Origin: Octopus vulgaris
Lineage: Eukaryota
Direction of reading: 5' to 3'
Length of the DNA stretch: 64,000 nt
Assembly (NCBI GenBank): GCA_951406725.2
Contig: OX597823.1
Location: 42,408,001 to 42,472,000 of the forward strand
This document shows positions 3,196 through 19,455 of this stretch, in pieces. Below the pieces are notes generated by a model, which searched no databases, was not told the DNA's origin, and saw only the letters and a list, made by a program, of their open reading frames with translations. Made by a program: the position numbers and the translations under genes. Position 1 is the stretch's first letter. Each line of letters opens with the position of its first letter.

Positions 3196-6100
3196 TCGTA
3201 CTGAGGCTGCTAGTTAGGATGCCTTATTTGTCGTTACGCAAGGAGCAATCAAACCCAGAAAACACATTGCAATGGGTATGGGTATAAAATCCATGACAGT
3301 CAGCAGAAAGGAGGTCACCCTCTTGAACCATTATGGCTAGAGCATCAATTATCATTGCGCAGAGGAACTGAGTTGACCTTTGCCCACAATGAGAAGCAGA
3401 CCATCGTCCCCGAGGGCGTACAACCAAACCGAGTAATGAGGAATGCCTACGATAATTATGACGAACTCGCCTGCACTCTATCAGGTGCAAATTCCTTACA
3501 CGATACGACGGGCATCCTTTACCAAAACGAAGATGAAACAGATCGAGGACGGCGTGATGCATCAGAATGGATAGTCCCGACTCCTTGGGAGAAACCAGAG
3601 AAAAGGAGAAAGTTGGATACAGACGATTCTGCACTTCTGCCCTACAAGAAGACTGCAAGAGTGAAATCGTTTTGTTACAGTACGACAAACGTGTGGGACA
3701 GGCCCGTTGCGACACTGCTGAAAGCTCGCAAGGCAGATTACGTGTTCATGATGAGCCACTCCTTCAAAATAGATGGAACGCCAATGTGGGGTGCATTCAA
3801 TGCCAGGTATCGCACGGACACAATTCCAAGACAGAAGATCTTCTAAATGCCTAATATCAGTCATTCTCCGACGAGTTTGGATGTTGTGGGTGAAACTCCC
3901 CGATTGACACAGAAGTGCGCCCTGGAATGTAATCAACAGTATGGTCTCGTGACATACGATTTCGCAATAGCGAAACCTGCCATCAGAATCCAAGACACCG
4001 AAAGTCCGACCTTCGACAAAGTATTCAGAATGTTCGGCCAATTTCATCTCCAGATGTGCAGTTTCAAGGCAATTGGCAAACTATTGGCCGCGTCAGGTGG
4101 CCCAAGAATCCTTACAGAGTGCGACAACGTACTTTCCCCTGGATCGCTGAAGGGATTCGAGTCTGGCACTCATTTCAACAGATGTAAGCAGCTGCATCCA
4201 ACCATGGCTTTCGCATTCGAGTGTCTTCACTTCAAAGCATTCCTTCAAAGCTATGAAACTGACGACATCGAAGTCCAGCTTGCGGTGGAAGAGGCACTCG
4301 GTACCCCAACTTGCGCTGTTACTTCCGATCTGTTGGAGAAAGTCATCTCTGATTACATGAAATTTTCGGAAGAGATAAAGAACGGAGCTCGAGGACCTAC
4401 CGCTCAATTCTGGATGGATTACATCGAAAGAATGCACGATTATCATGTACTCGATCATGCCATCAGAACAAACGATGTTGACTTGTTCATAGACGCTTTC
4501 GCTCCGATCATCTCTCTGCTGTTCGCAACCGATCGACAGAACTACGCTAGGTATATGATGAAGTACCAGATAGGTCTTATGAATATAGATGAGACACACC
4601 CTGGATTATTAAGAGGCTTGCTTAATCATGATAGGTTCACTATTTGTAGAACCAGTAATTCGTTCTCAAGGTGTCCTATCGATCTAACACTGGAACAGAC
4701 AATCAATGCTGATGCTGCTTCTCGGCTCATAGGGTTGTCAGCTATGACGAACAACTATATAGCCAGACTCCGTTGGATGTTCACCAAGTCATCTCGGGCT
4801 GCTATTGTCACTGAGCTGATGGAGATGGCAGGGATGGACACCACAGAATCAACTGTAGCTGAGCAACGACCGGCAAGAGTCAAGCGAGGCCGATCAGATT
4901 TGGAAAAAGTGATCGCGCAGATAGAAAAGTCCTGTAACCCTTTCACCCTTATGAACACGACTGACATACACACGGGAAAGGCATGCAGTGAAAACGTGAA
5001 GAGAAGTCTGCTCGATGTTCGAGCAACTGGCAGAAACATGCACGAAACATTCGTTGCGGAATGCGTCGAAAACCCAGCACTATTCGAAAAGCCACTGAGA
5101 AAGATAAAGATTAAAACCTTCGCAAGTGATAGCGTTGGAAATCGGCGACCAAAGAACAAAAGATTACAACGAATGAAATGCACATGTGACTTGATGGGTA
5201 GGATGTTGATCATCTCAGCGAAAGAGAAATTGGACCTCAAGCATGTTCTCACATACCCAATTACGCCTGTTCCGTTGGCACTCTGTTGCAGCGACGGTAA
5301 AATGACGAAAACCGATAAAAGCAAGTTGTTCAGCTATCTCGAGAGCCACGCAATGGAAGTTCATCAACCAAGCATCCAAACACCTTCTGTGATCGATGGG
5401 AACTTTTTGTTACACGTCATGCCATCCAAATTACCAAAGACATTCAGTGGATTGGCCTGGACAATCCTTGGCTTATGTGAAGCAACAGGTCGCCAACGTG
5501 TTGACATTGTGTACGACACACAACGGTCACCTTCCATCAAAGATGCTGAACGTGGACACAGACGTGCAACATAGATTACCTTCACCATAGTGGGACCAGA
5601 TCAGGTAACACCCAAGTTTTCCGAGGCAATGCAGTCCAGATCATTCAAATCGCAGCTTCCCCAGTTCCTTGCTCAAGAGTGGGAGAAAGACGAATACTCG
5701 TCGATTCTGGGTACTCGATCAATGTACGTCAGTGCTGGGGGTACCGTAATAATAAAGTTGTCATGATTCGAGAGAGAGCTCCAGAACTGGACTGCAACCA
5801 TGACGAGGGAGATACACGAGTGGTTCCTCATGTACTGCACATGGCACATGACTCTGAAGAAATTATCATCCGTGCGTCTGATACCGATATCGCTGTAATC
5901 ATGCTATGTCATCTCGAGAAAGTGAAGGCCACAGTATGGATGGAAGTGGGAACGAGCTGCCAGAACACTCGATGGTAAGTCAACCTGTCGCAGATAGCAG
6001 CATCGATTGGCCCTCTCATGTGCAAACCTCTGCCTGGATTTCACACATTTACAGGCTGTGGCTACACATCTTTTGACAGGCAAGGAAAGATACGGCCTCT

Positions 6101-6592
6101 TCAAATCCTTGAGCAGAACACAGAATTCCAGTATGCATTTGCCAAGCTGGGCGATGCTGACCCAGACCTGGAAACATTCATCATTATAGAAAAATATACC
6201 TGTCGCATATATCGCCAAATAAGCTGTACCAGAAACAACGACACACGTTACGCAGTCTTCGAGAAAGCATTCTCCCCCATGCGTTAAAGCAAAAGATCCA
6301 CTCGAGAAACTGAAGGGAATCGACGCAAGCAGTCTACCACCGTGCCACAATGAACTTTTGCAACAATACCAACGTGTAAGATTCGTTGCGAACTTGTGGA
6401 GAAATGTCGAATAATTGTTACTTGAACGACAACTGCAGTATGGATGGGAACTGGTCGATAACGAATGCACGATCATCTGGTTCCATGGCGAGTCTGACAG
6501 AGGAGAGACCAGCATCACTACCCATTGACGTGGATGATACCATGTTGACCGTATCCTCTGGCGACGAGCAGTCAGACTCCGGTACAGAATAG
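3196..6592 (+). pseudogene. Academ transposase fused to an XPG/FEN1-like nuclease (few stops and frameshifts; N-terminus missing)
   Basis: Stitched from ORFs 3355-3846, 3847-5574, 5679-5978, 6018-6287 and 6386-6592. Transposase motifs: KPRKHIAMGMGIKSMT, AYDNYD..TLSG..SLHDTTGILYQ, VTYDFAIA, GQFHLQM, GTHFNRC, PIDLTLEQTIN. Nuclease motifs: VIDGN, RVDIVYD, NHDEGDTRV, SDTDIAV, PGFHTFTGCGYTS..GK, LPPC. Confidence 0.85.
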
Positions 6593-7197: not shown

Positions 7198-7628
7198 ATT
7201 CAATAGAGGATGATATGTTTATTAGTTAAAATGCTTCTTAAATTAGGGATCCATACCTATCATTCTTACATACTATGATTATATTCAGTTTGACGAGCCG
7301 AATATTTTTGTGAAAGAATTTACACCGGAGCATAAAGTCTAATTAACGATCTAATTAAAGATTTCCTAATGTCTTCCAATACCTGGGACGTTTCTTAATT
7401 TCTTCCTTTGATGTCAACTGGGTCTAAGACATGTTTCTATGTTGCATTCATCACGTAGCTTGAAAACAGTGTTTCTGCATGTTTCTTCTTAATTAGTGTA
7501 TTGTAATTAGTAGAAAATGCTTCTTAAATTAAAAATCCATACCTAAAATGGTTCTTAAGTGACATGAATAGATTCAGTTGGGTTCAGTGAACATTTCTGC
7601 GAAGTAATTGTCGCTGGAGCAGAAAGTC
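7198..7628 (-). repeat. Right arm of the Academ long inverted repeat
   Basis: Inverted copy of 2707-3153 with scattered substitutions and small indels. Confidence 0.95.
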
Positions 7629-7629
7629 A

Positions 7630-8305
7630 AATGAAAAATAAAAAAACATTTACCCTATTTTTTTATTTTTCATTCCCTTTCAGAATTACAGCTATTAGTG
7701 GTTTGTAGTTTAACTACTCTTTCCAGCGAGTCAAATGTCCTGTTATGTCCATCTCTTATGTGTTTAAATGTACACTGTATGTGTATATATATATATAATA
7801 TATAGTCTATTGACTAATTTTTCCTTCTTGCTAGACCACTGGTAGTAAAGAATTTTTCTAAAATTTATTTGCTACCCTATGATTTACTAATTAATGATAA
7901 AAAAGTTTTTTGGCTAGTTTTGAAAGAAAATCGGCACTTGCTTGTATTTACTGCCAAAAAATCCGCGTGTGCGATGGATTTTGAAAAATTATAACATATA
8001 AACACAAGGCATGTTCTTTATCACCTCGTATCTATATGTTAGCCTTGGCTTCCTGCTGAAGAGGACAACGCCAATTGTAAATTAATATTATTTTATTTTA
8101 TTTTATTTTATTTACAAAAGATTGCCTGAAACTATGCATAGTCCAGGAAAAATACGGTAAATGTTTATTTTTTTTTCATTCCCTTTCAGAATTACAACTA
8201 TTAGTGGTTTGTAGTTTAACAACTCTTTGTAGCGAGTCAGATGTCCTATTATGGCCATCTCTTATGTGTTTAAATGTACACTGTATGTGTATATATATAT
8301 ATATA
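7630..8305 (+). mobile_element. Partial tandem (~505 nt period) Penelope pLTR/retrozyme-like repeat containing a hammerhead ribozyme
   Basis: Direct repeat 7668-7795 vs 8173-8300 (TTTCATTCCCTTTCAGAATTACA...AAATGTACACTGTATGTG). The hammerhead lies immediately upstream of the second copy. Confidence 0.7.
8050..8149 (+). ncRNA. Type I hammerhead ribozyme with palindromic stem III and extended stem II
   Basis: Stem I TTCCTG/CAGGAA; core CTGAAGA 8056-8062; stem II GGACAA..TTGCCT with inner hairpin TTGTAAAT..ATTTACAA; GAA 8128-8130; perfect palindrome ACTATGCATAGT; GUC cleavage triplet at 8141-8143. Confidence 0.85.
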
Positions 8306-8310
8306 TGTAT

Positions 8311-8510
8311 AGGGAGAATTCACAAAAAAACAAAAGATGAAGACAGATGGTATAGACAACATACAGATGTATTAGTTTAACACTCGGGAAGTGAAAAAGT
8401 CTTTAATGTTTCGAGCCTATGCGCTTCCACAGAAAGGAACACAGAAAGAAACACAGAAAGAAACAAGGAGAGAAAATAAAGAATGTGTAGTGGCTAGAGA
8501 TCTATCATGG
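8311..8510 (-). mobile_element. ~200 nt microsatellite-flanked element with a variant minimal hammerhead (second copy at 42634-42818)
   Basis: Minus strand 8401-8436 reads CTTT-CTGTGGA-AGCGCatagGCTC-GAA-ACAT-T-AAAG. Flanked by (TA)n and (CA)n. Confidence 0.65.
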
Positions 8511-8517
8511 TGAATGA

Positions 8518-8988
<471 letters not shown>

Positions 8989-9360
8989 CTCTTTTACTTA
9001 TTTCAGTCATTTGACTACGGCTATGCTGGAGCACTGCCTTTAGTCGAGCAAATCGACTCCAGGACTTATTCTTTGTAAGCCTAATACTTATTCTATCGTC
9101 TCTTTTGCTGAACCGCTAAGTTACAGAGACGTAAACACACCAGCATCGGTTGTCAAGTGATGTTGGGGGGGACAAACACAGACACACAAATACACACATA
9201 TATATACATATACATATATACAACGAGCTTCTTTCAGTTTCCATCCACCAAATCCACTCACAAGGCTTTGGTCGGCCCGTGGCTATAGTAGAAAACACTT
9301 GCCCAAGGTGCCGTGCAGTGGGACTGAACCTGGAACCATGTGGTTGGTAAGCAAGCTACT
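8989..9360 (-). mobile_element. tRNA-derived SINE, family B (5' head clipped)
   Basis: Inverted match to 53076-53445 (GGCACCTTGGGCAAGTG, CCAAAGCCTTGTGAGTGGATTTGGT, CAAATGACTGAAA). Confidence 0.85.
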
Positions 9361-9439
9361 TTATTTCATTAAGATTGACCATAAAGGCATTACAAAGAGC
9401 AGCTTGCGGGATGGACATATACATTGACGAGATGAATGA

Positions 9440-9750
9440 TGAAATAAGGATGATATTGATGAGAGAAGGCATCTATTTACAAGCTTTTTAATCCCATCAA
9501 TGTAAAACGCTTTTGGTTTCAAAGTAAAGAATTCTAAAATGTAAGTTTCGACCTCGTCCTGGTTTGTAAAAGTTATGACCCCCAAATGATTCTGTAAACT
9601 ACAAAACAAATGGTAGTCTGAAGGAGCAAGGTTGGGAGAATAAGGTGGATGAGGAATATTTTCCCAACCAAGCTCTTCGATCTTCTGTGATGTGATCTTT
9701 GCAGTGTGGGGTCACGCATTGTCCTGATGAAACGTCACTCCTTTTTTTGA
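9440..9750 (-). mobile_element. mariner (DD34D) transposase C-terminal fragment
   Basis: Minus strand FHQDNA*PHTAKITSQKIEELGWENIPHPPYSPNLAPSDYHLFCSLQNHL..FYIDGIKKLVNRC. Confidence 0.9.
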
Positions 9751-16000: not shown

Positions 16001-16799
16001 GTAAGTGTACTGGTGATCATGTGGTCATCAAGAAAGGGAAAAAAATTATTAAATAAGAAATTTGCATCAGATATCCTGGTTACTTAGTAATTGTTCCTTA
16101 ATAAGGTATAAGGCCTGTAATTTGAGAGAAGGTGGGAGTCAATCACATCGGCCCTCAATGCTTGACAGGTACTTTATTATATTGATCCCAGAAAGCTAAC
16201 TTGTGCAGGATTTGAACTCAGAATGTTAAGTGTCAGAACAAATGCCGTGAAAGTATTTTTCTAAGCTCTAAAGATTCTCCCAGTTCACAACCTTTATGTA
16301 CATTCTAATAACGTGAAGCTGGTCGATACAAGAGTATTGTAATTTGCTCAATGCACTACCATATGCATAAAGGAGATAAATGTTTGAAAAATCTCTGTGA
16401 TATGGATAACAAATTAAAATATTTAAGGTGATGTCAAATAATTTGCATATTCTAACAGCTAGAGCACACATCATTAGCAACAAAATGAAACACTTAACAT
16501 ATCAGCATTTTAACACTTTGTCTACCATGAGAATCGCTGGTGACTCCCAATCATGATATTTTTTCATGAAGCCTTACATTACAGCGTATCAAAATATATT
16601 ATTCAAATTTTAGGAAATGTACAGAACACAGATATCAGATGGGTGTAAGTCACAATCATTTCCAACATTGTAGTACTACCCCTTATGAAAATAATTTTTG
16701 TCAAAAAGAAACCACTAAAGCTTATATTTTCTGGGGGGAAAAATCTGGGGAAGCAAAAATCCATAAATGGGGGTATACTGGATATTTTAGCACTACATG

Positions 16800-19455
16800 T
16801 ATTAATCTATGAATTGGAAAATAACCAGAAGGCAATCATCGTAAGTGCATATGTCTCAACCATGAGCCACCTAGATGAATACAGAGAAGCCTTCTATGAT
16901 GACCCCAGGAGAGTAATTAGAAGCATACCATATAAAGTGAAGCTAATCCTTCTGCAGGACTTTAATGCTTGTGTTGGTAAGGATCATTCTACATGGAAGG
17001 GTGTAGCGTGGGAACATGTCATTGGATGGAAGAATTCTAATGGTCATCTCTTCCTGACGAAATGTAGAGAGTTCAAGCAAGCAATTACTAACACAGTCTA
17101 CAAGTACAAAACCTCGATGCACACTGGCATTTGATACACTATGTGATTGTTCAGTAGAGGGACTAAAATGATGTTTGTTATACCAGATCATTCAGAGGCA
17201 CAGACTGCTGGTCAAATCACAGGAGCATCATGTCCTTAAAGTTTACAGTTAAACTGTCTAGCCACAGAACCAAACCTGTAAAGAAGTTCAATATACCCTC
17301 ACCCAAGGTAAAGGAAAAGCTCACTGAATTAGTAGAGTCCATAGATTAAGTTCTGGAAAGCATATCAGATGACTCTCAATATTGAACAAAACTGGAAGAG
17401 CTTAAAGCAGCATATATATGAGAAAACCGCTGAGCCTTTTGGCTTTGTTAAGTACAAACATCATGACTAGTTTAATGAGAACAATCAAGACATTGGAAAA
17501 CTCATTGACATTATGTATTCTGCTCATAACAAGTACTTCGCGGCCAAAGCATTGAGAGGAACTAAAGCCAGGTACCATCAGGCAAAACACATCCTATAGA
17601 CCAGGTTAAAAACCATGAAGAACCTGTGGTAAGAGAACAAAGCATTTGACCTACAGGCAGTTGACAAACATGACATAAAGACATTTTATGAGGGTCTCAA
17701 GGTAGACTATGGCCTCAAGACTAGTAGTGCTCTACGTGTTCTAATATTAGATGACACACAGCTTCTTATGGACAAGAATTACATCCTCTCTCATTGGGCA
17801 GAACACTTTAACAGAGTTCTAAAACAAGTATCAACAGCAAACAACGATATCATAGATGACTTCCCACAATGTATCTTGGATCAGCTTGACTGGGAACCAT
17901 CCCTGTCAGAAGTGATAAAAGACAAAGCAACTGTACTCTGGGAAGTCATCAGGTTCAGAAGGCAAACCAGGCAAGGCAGCACTCACCTGGCTAAAAAATT
18001 CACCAAGCTTTACCAGTATATATAGAACCAACACAAGACTACAAAGGTGTTTCTATAATACTGTTGCAACAACCATCATGATATATAACTCCTTTCTATT
18101 GCCAGTTAAACATTTGCTCATCAGGATCATTCTTCACCTAGTAGACACTGAGAACTCTAAATCACAATGTAGTTTCTATGGTAGTCAAAGATCAATTAAT
18201 ATGATATACACTTCATGTCAGGTTCAGAAGAAGGCCAGAGAGCAGTACCAGGACCTCTACTGGGATTTTGTTAATTTAACAAAACTTTAGATAAAGTTAA
18301 CTGTGATACTCCCTGGAAAGTACTTTACAAATCTGGATATCTCCAAAAAGATTGTCGGAGTAATAAGATCATTCCACAATGGTATGATGGCCTTCATGAT
18401 TCAGCTTCCAACACATTCTACATAAAAAGAAAGGAACCAAGTTGGACTGAGTGATGGTATCTATCTCATTGGCAAGTTACTTCTTAGTTATGATGCAAGA
18501 GGTATTCAGAGATATTGTGAAAGGTGAACACATCTAGTTTAGGATACATGGTAATGTTTTCAATCTACAAGACCTCAAGACCCAGAACCAAAGTCAGAGA
18601 ACATCTGAGAGAGTTTCTATTTGCAGACGATTGTGCACCCTCTACAAGACATCCAAGCATTAGTTGACTGTTTTACTTATGTTGCTTGATCTTTTGGCCT
18701 AACCATCAGCTTGAGGAAGACCAGCCAGTACCTGGACACCCAAAATAGGATTTTATTGTCATAGTAGACAATGCCCCAGTAAATGCTGTGACAAAATTCT
18801 GCTACCAAAGAATCATTCTATCAAACAATGTTCAATTGGATGAAGAGAACCCCTTAGCAATTGTCTAAAACAAGCTCATCTTGCAATAAACTCTAACACT
18901 GAATGTGGAGAGATCATGGACACTTTACAGGCATTATATTAAACAATTAGACTCATTCCATCTTGGTTGCCTTCATCCAATTTGCAACAGAGTGATGGGA
19001 CAAAGTCCCTAACACAGAGGTTCTTACAAGAGATGACATTCTAGACATAGAGAGATACCTTATCAAAGCACAACTGAAGTGGTCAGTTATGTAGTACACA
19101 TGGATGACACTTGCTTACCTAAAGCCCTCTTTTATGGTTGGTTTAGTTCTAGTACAAGGCAACAAGGTCACCCACTGCTCCATTATAAGGAGTCTTTAAA
19201 AACTTGCTTGAAAATCTGTCGGATAAACCTGAAGATATGGGAAGTGATAGCGCTGAATAAAACTCAGTAGAGAAGCTCTTGCTGCCAAGCCAACTCCTAC
19301 TTTGGGGCAGTCATAATCAACACCCTGAATGAGAAAAGAGCCCAACATAGGTCAATTCTACAACAAAATGAGGATCACCACTGCAACAGGATCTGCAAAT
19401 CCTGGATATACCTGTATTCCTATATGAGACCACACAACAAAATATCAAGCTGAGA
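16800..19455 (+). mobile_element. Decayed RTE-clade (BovB-like) LINE
   Basis: Endonuclease region SAYVSTM..EAFYDD..KLILLQDFNACVG..NSNGHLFL..C..ITNT; HWAEHF..VL; RT FLFADDC (~18615-18635); HMDDTCLPKALFYG..GHPLLHYKESLK; terminal CNRICKS..H motif. Confidence 0.9.

Follow-up and report, generated by a model that had tools for sequence, protein, structure and literature searches.

A truncated copy of a protein-free repeat family with a predicted hammerhead ribozyme in the genome of Octopus vulgaris, likely mobilised by Penelope-like elements

Why should the segment that follows a predicted hammerhead ribozyme be repeated one unit further upstream, in a stretch of octopus DNA that seems to encode no protein? 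The question arose from a 64,000-nt stretch of the Octopus vulgaris genome (contig OX597823.1; C10:42408001-42472000), referred to below as the window. A sequence-only reading of it had offered two answers, a retrozyme or a tandem of Penelope pLTRs, and had named a simple local duplication with random boundaries among the findings that would refute it. We find that the two answers merge into one, because the unit is non-coding, as a retrozyme would be, and yet bears the insertion scars of Penelope-like elements (PLEs). Judging from sequence comparisons, the window very probably holds a truncated copy of a ~470-nt, protein-free repeat family that has a predicted hammerhead and that PLEs are likely to have mobilised.

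Self-comparison of the window showed that the claimed repeat of ~130 nt at ~505 nt spacing is real, and slightly longer than had been noticed: positions 7658-7797 and 8164-8303 form a direct repeat of 140 nt with 94% identity and a spacing of 506. The claim that the unit has no ORF also held, with no ATG-initiated frame longer than 48 aa in 7600-8320 (the longest is 48 aa). The upstream boundary, in contrast, is not the one that had been described. The direct copy opens at the equivalent of ~8164-8169, which lies 20-25 nt downstream of the cut-equivalent rather than directly behind it, and a 33-nt fold-back piece precedes it. This inverted piece (7630-7662, minus strand) forms the left edge of the insertion; it matches 8148-8180, or nt 5-37 after the cut, in reverse complement with 91% identity, and it terminates 4 nt from the cut position. 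Its place ahead of the direct copy implies that the copied strand came within 4 nt of the cut and then folded back.

The remaining parts lie on the plus strand. The 5'-truncated upstream unit (7663-7785), covered by the 94% direct repeat, extends from approximately nt 21-25 after the cut-equivalent to a short 3'-end site; it is followed by a 'tail' (7786-7891), which spans the interval from the short to the long of the family's two fixed 3'-end sites (~7785 and ~7891, respectively) and has a hairpin (7841-7876) predicted from folds of natural monomers. Then come the non-coding body of the unit (7892-8049), delimited by copy comparison and ORF scan, the predicted type I hammerhead (8050-8149), assigned from its motif, family conservation and folds, and the post-cut segment (8144-8290), which has a 5' hairpin region at ~nt 3-37 and runs to the short 3'-end site according to the inverted match and the end mapping. 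A (TA)n run (8291-8310, unstranded) forms the 3' junction and is the putative target. At ~1.3 units the locus holds one ribozyme and no tandem pair, so that unit-length RNA could not be released from this copy by double cleavage. Its unit of 506 nt exceeds the family length, the excess coming partly from expanded TTATT and TA runs.

In the left flank of the copy, a 32-nt repeat (7228-7259 and 7514-7545) has a spacing of 286 and 91% identity, and the similarity seems to extend further. To the right, a 450-nt (AT)n run (8533-8986) is followed by two repeats (8995-9350) that we take to be SINE-like and that are common in the loci examined. The frame at 9361-9711 (minus strand), which we take to resemble a mariner transposase fragment, had no match in a Pfam search; nor had the first frame within 16649-18290 (plus strand), where we presume the fragments to resemble a LINE endonuclease/RT region. 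A broken series of long frames at 3214-6290 (plus strand) includes one of 575 aa (3847-5574) that matches DUF6589 weakly and below the cut-off (E 1.3e-5), and is probably a decayed DNA transposon.

The unit is not confined to this locus. A DNA search of the genome (2.8 Gb in 227 contigs) gave 81 scored matches, with 40 scored of 2374 first-look candidates, and the full-length copies among the matches listed are 79-86% identical to the window copy. The claim of a multi-copy element is borne out by exact matches of three unit motifs, which number 360, 179 and 526 against 0 in reversed controls; the last of these is the ribozyme-half motif, with at least 526 exact matches. The family is thus dispersed, ORF-less and multi-copy. 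The majority unit built from the copies is 472 nt long, natural cut-to-cut monomers measure 458-486 nt (family unit ~470 nt), and the GC content is 0.33-0.36. A simple local duplication with random boundaries would fit the 1.3 units that the window holds, but it is ruled out by hundreds of dispersed copies in which the 3' ends are fixed and the partial-tandem build recurs, and we leave it a negligible probability.

The family also has relatives. The genome contains a younger subfamily of it and a sibling family (L282-L311) with a 472-nt period, a different hammerhead sequence and 192 motif matches, which shares the two 3' ends and the head-to-head arms described below. Contigs of three other organisms cover 28 of the 30 bins of the unit, and those of a fourth, more diverged, cover 25 of 30. 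Contigs from four runs taken as RNA were short pieces with masked stretches inside the ribozyme, none of them spanning the unit. At C1:212.56-212.59 Mb (L247-L249), fragments of the unit lie within a 1.5-kb tandem segmental repeat that has an AT-rich satellite. On C1 and C2, pairs of ribozymes lying far apart were considered as candidate full-length elements and proved to be fragments in the 1.5-kb segmental repeat plus two separate insertions.

The ribozyme itself was drawn as a type I hammerhead on the plus strand, with stem I (8050-8055/8144-8149), the core CUGAAGA (8056-8062), stem II (8063-8068/8122-8127), which has one mismatch in the window copy and a long AU-rich extension, GAAA (8128-8131), a palindromic stem III (8131-8142) and a cut after GUC (8143/8144). 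Rfam, at its gathering and E-value thresholds, gave no hammerhead match, only microsatellite-driven miRNA noise, and unconstrained folding of the window's ribozyme did not produce the hammerhead (z −1.7), the constrained fold (−10.7) lying 4.4 kcal/mol above the free minimum (−15.1). Across the copies of the family, conservation reaches 95-100% in the core columns except at position 7, which varies (60%), and the full hammerhead can be parsed in 79 of the 90 full-span copies, the other 11 being damaged. Pair 4 of stem I is T-A in 43, C-G in 30 and something else in 7 of 80 copies, where copies rather than independent events are counted. In the sibling family and the younger subfamily, stems I-III are altered with pairing kept; specifically, the sibling has the sequences of stems II and III swapped and the pairing retained. 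Such covariation argues for selection on the hammerhead fold, and the repeat unit is predicted to carry a type I hammerhead with an intact core. By itself the stem III palindrome forms no fold (0 kcal/mol), and as a homodimer it gives −15.9 kcal/mol; the predicted dimerisation is in line with the dimeric cleavage that the consulted sections of PMC7761336 describe for hammerheads with a weak helix III. Circular folds are better than those of shuffled sequences (z −3.7 to −5.2), and so are antisense folds (z −2.4 to −4.2).

How do the copies begin and end? The sample of ends was drawn from two anchors with 360 and 179 matches, by taking the first 100 listed for either; removal of duplicates left 96 + 96 rows and 182 distinct 5' junctions. 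The exact anchors bias this sample to less decayed copies, and the rows are not fully independent since both arms of some insertions are among the 182. The 3' ends form two classes ~100 nt apart, short (window ~8280-8290) and long (window-equivalent ~7891), and 144 of the 182 sampled arms run into (TA)n at the 3' end. A head-to-head inverted arm was present at 96/182 of the 5' junctions; the window's own 33-nt inverted piece fell under the threshold of the script, and the window was counted as single-armed. Of the 83 two-armed loci, 71 combine one short and one long arm and 12 have an off-class end; short+short and long+long combinations are absent. The single-arm copies divide into 58 short, 25 long and 3 other, and only 2 of 86 have a flanking direct repeat of at least 6 nt, i.e., there is no clear TSD. 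Arm-to-arm identity is 0.950 within a locus versus 0.905 between loci; as the own partner arm ranked first in just 13 of 39 cases, arm identity cannot separate arms of the same molecule from arms of the same subfamily.

The (TA)n targets, the head-to-head arms and the two fixed 3' ends are Penelope-like insertion scars. Partial tandems, inverted arms, a one-ended tail of 30-40 bp and a (TA)n bias are described for PLEs in the sections of PMC8557442 that we consulted. EN+ PLEs (Neptune, Nematis and Naiad in PMC8557442; Poseidon PAc in PMC11167929) accordingly share with the unit 5' truncation, partial tandems, an inverted 5' arm, the (TA)n bias, the lack of a clear TSD, a one-ended tail and a hammerhead upstream of the 3' ends. 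Unlike them, the unit has no ORF, and its tail of ~100 nt is about threefold the published length. These scars suggest a route by which a borrowed PLE reverse transcriptase/GIY-YIG endonuclease would copy the unit into TA microsatellites. The PLE protein would nick both strands of a (TA)n run, and two cDNAs would be primed internally, one per strand and one at each 3'-end site; they would stop early, then join or fold back by microhomology. At the window locus, the short site would have been the starting point of a cDNA that passed one cut position, came to a halt 4 nt short of the next and folded back. PMC11167929 describes a PLE protein, predicted to form a dimer, that cleaves AT-rich DNA on both strands and extends each of them; reverse transcription starts at two internal sites with the tail lying between them.

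Could the unit instead be a pLTR, belonging to a PLE (autonomous or with internal deletions) outside our sample? Every pLTR-type scar is present, frog retrozymes are homologous to pLTRs according to the consulted part of a preprint (10.64898/2026.07.22.740005), and our search for a partner scored 150 of 6136 GIY-YIG candidates and looked at 70 PLE-type loci. However, when the 1-kb 5' flanks of the 182 junctions were compared with 10 real PLE ORFs, the linked autonomous ORF that the sequence-only reading proposed to look for was found in sense in none of them (0/182), with one antisense neighbour, and arms that extend upstream continue as further unit, not as coding sequence. We therefore regard such a pLTR as improbable. 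No RT + GIY-YIG ORF lies within the unit, and comparison with 20 + 20 PLE loci and with the tandem junction of one young PLE family revealed no shared pLTR. The best PLE-locus matches to the unit are short (62-79%) and fall in other non-coding repeats; the long-end motif of the unit resembles the short-end motif of one PLE family, a likeness between AT-rich sequences in a set of PLE loci that is only partly sampled. A set of 91 'protein hits' consisted mostly of spurious frames of other repeats.

The genome does hold several RT+GIY-YIG families, which the CX4CxxC linker would place in the Neptune/Nematis type. At least two autonomous PLE families are young (L213, L218, L227, L269-L271), with hammerhead-like motifs near the 3' ends of both. 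One autonomous family has many open frames of 781 aa. The other forms exact tandems with a 4271-bp period (1716 motif matches), and its 3' ends in (TA)n fall at two sites separated by 31 nt, giving a 31-nt tail as against the ~100 nt of the unit; its opposed pairs were short+long in 4/4 cases seen among 30 loci. At the 3' TA run of a PLE, another head-to-head, non-coding family with a type I hammerhead was seen (L218:2800-3264), and this repeat is 64% similar to the tail region of the unit. A repeat at L210:475-790 (minus strand) is 62% similar to the post-cut segment and has parts of a hammerhead core seemingly out of order. Directly 5' of a truncated sibling copy, a PLE RT-like fragment (L283:1265-1414) matches no sampled family well; this single junction is possibly a template switch.

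If ribozyme-cleaved RNA were the template, 5' ends should gather at the cut, as the sequence-only reading had predicted, and this was only partly the case. A broad excess is clear: nt 1-44 after the cut contain 63 5' ends, or 1.07 per 100 nt at risk compared with 0.46 elsewhere (2.3-fold, p 3.5e-7), and form the top 44-nt window of the scan. The excess is present in both 3'-end classes, and it has a counterpart at the same place in the next unit upstream, with 6 ends at 1.61 per 100 nt. Exact clustering was not seen: nt 1-5 after the cut contain 5 ends and are not significantly enriched (p 0.11), and among 108 arms at risk only 5 have their end at the first 2 nt. The rate per 100 nt at risk is 1.38 at nt 1-22, 0.81 at nt 23-44 and 0.39 at nt 45-88; it is 0.27 in the 22 nt before the cut and 0.3-0.6 further upstream. 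As the enrichment is broad and many arms cross the cut by read-through (103/166), the predicted boundary takes the form of a broad, partial barrier.

This barrier has an alternative cause, because the excess overlaps the hairpin at nt 3-37, which could itself favour fold-back. The hairpin together with microhomology at nt 3-37 might then account for the whole excess, and the hammerhead would have no role in the shape of the insertions. In keeping with this, the excess is strongest at inverted junctions (3.0-fold), many of which are joined within the hairpin, and a second structured zone, close to where the upstream unit has its long-end site, is equally enriched (13 ends, 1.03 per 100 nt). On the other hand, a hairpin sits poorly with the fall in rate from 1.38 to 0.27 immediately upstream of the cut, with the enrichment of single-arm copies (1.7-fold, p 0.03; for nt 1-22, 2.2-fold, p 0.009) and with the covariation, which implies a fold under selection. 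We consider it somewhat unlikely that the hairpin is all there is to the excess.

The multimers that had been predicted were found in partial form. Arms longer than one unit make up 30/182 and arms longer than two units 0/182, and a two-site pattern has 15 matches at 14 insertions, where two consecutive ribozymes thus occur in tandem; the longest arm is 1154 nt. Three consecutive ribozyme sites were not found with the two-site pattern (periods 458-488). Neighbouring units of one locus resemble each other to 90-100% in 13 of the 15 two-site arms, the remaining two being cut short. The family exists mostly as dispersed 0.3-2.5-unit pieces, and its multimers occur without arrays. Where junctions are read at the cut, the exact motif is present in 77/85, and a deletion of at least 3 nt touches the cut in 5 of 106 cut-crossing arms; indels at the cut, considered as a sign of template jumps, are not elevated (78th percentile for the unit). 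It seems that multimers arise anew from single units, as either a circle or template jumps could bring about.

In the PLE-borne route, the template would be a hammerhead-released, unit-length RNA that is partly closed to a circle. A cDNA that meets an open 5' end would stop near the cut, and one on a closed or uncut template would read through, giving up to ~2.5 units. We hold the circle step to be slightly favoured. The same element and the same PLE machinery could also work on linear read-through transcripts, cut in part by the hammerhead or uncut, with no circle and with multimers arising from linear dimers or template jumps. This would explain more easily why 5' ends accumulate just past the cut, given that a closed circle is endless; furthermore, an autonomous PLE in this genome makes exact tandems without a demonstrated circle, unprocessed RNA is the main substrate in vitro (PMC11167929), and deletions touch the cut in some of the crossing arms (the 5/106 above). 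But linear copying can only make arrays shorter, and there is no long master array from which to start, none of the 15 two-site matches (periods 458-488) having three consecutive sites; nor do the ordinary level of indels at the cut and the exact junctions (77/85) speak for jumps. Copying without a circle is a real contender that we place a little below an even chance.

How does the octopus family compare with what is known? Animal non-LTR retrozymes were defined, and PLEs proposed as their movers, by Cervera and de la Pena (2020; PMC7229834). As far as that paper and PMC7761336 were covered, metazoan non-LTR retrozymes resemble the unit in being non-coding, low-GC tandems with a type I hammerhead and a weak helix III, in having no LTR and in coexisting with PLEs (mussel examples are 350-390 bp). 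The unit is longer, at 458-506 nt versus ~170-400 in the first description (PMC7229834), its family consists mostly of dispersed 0.3-2.5-unit pieces rather than the long arrays of metazoan retrozymes, and it is known here from genomic copies, whereas metazoan retrozymes accumulate as circular RNA. The covered parts of these sources describe neither two-armed insertions nor fixed 3' ends for metazoan retrozymes.

The preprint by Li, Clavereau and Pollet (10.64898/2026.07.22.740005), in the parts consulted, treats animal retrozymes as non-autonomous PLE derivatives and so comes to the same conclusion of PLE mobilisation, with many monomers and with family lengths of 51-972 bp, a span that covers the unit. 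It argues from co-occurrence and from homology to pLTRs, for the most part in vertebrates, while the PLE link of the octopus family rests on insertion anatomy, with no pLTR homology to the sampled PLEs. The sample listed in those parts has no mollusc, and the supplements may list related families. In giant squid, 235 hammerheads were counted, without analysis in the part of PMC6962438 that was covered. No paper on cephalopod retrozymes was found in the literature searched, with Repbase and Dfam outside that search. Within the known class of animal non-LTR retrozymes, the octopus repeats likely form a new family, one that PLEs have probably mobilised; the family itself is a modest addition, because both the class and the proposed PLE link are already in print.

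The value of the family lies in the numbers, namely a strict rule of one short and one long arm, an unusually long tail and a measurable drop of 5' ends at the cut. The arm rule bears on how the two start sites of a PLE serve two target strands, and the drop bears on whether hammerhead cleavage matters in vivo; in PMC11167929, ribozyme cleavage was dispensable in vitro and no reads started at the cut. We tentatively suggest, while thinking it less probable than its negation, that the family records the in vivo copying of ribozyme-processed RNA by a PLE dimer. Two protomers would use two fixed internal sites, one per target strand and never the same site twice, with a spacing of up to ~100 nt, and the RNA would alternate between a closed circle, giving read-through and multimers, and a hammerhead-opened line, giving stops near the cut. 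If true, this reading would give the hammerhead an in vivo role that was unseen in vitro (PMC11167929).
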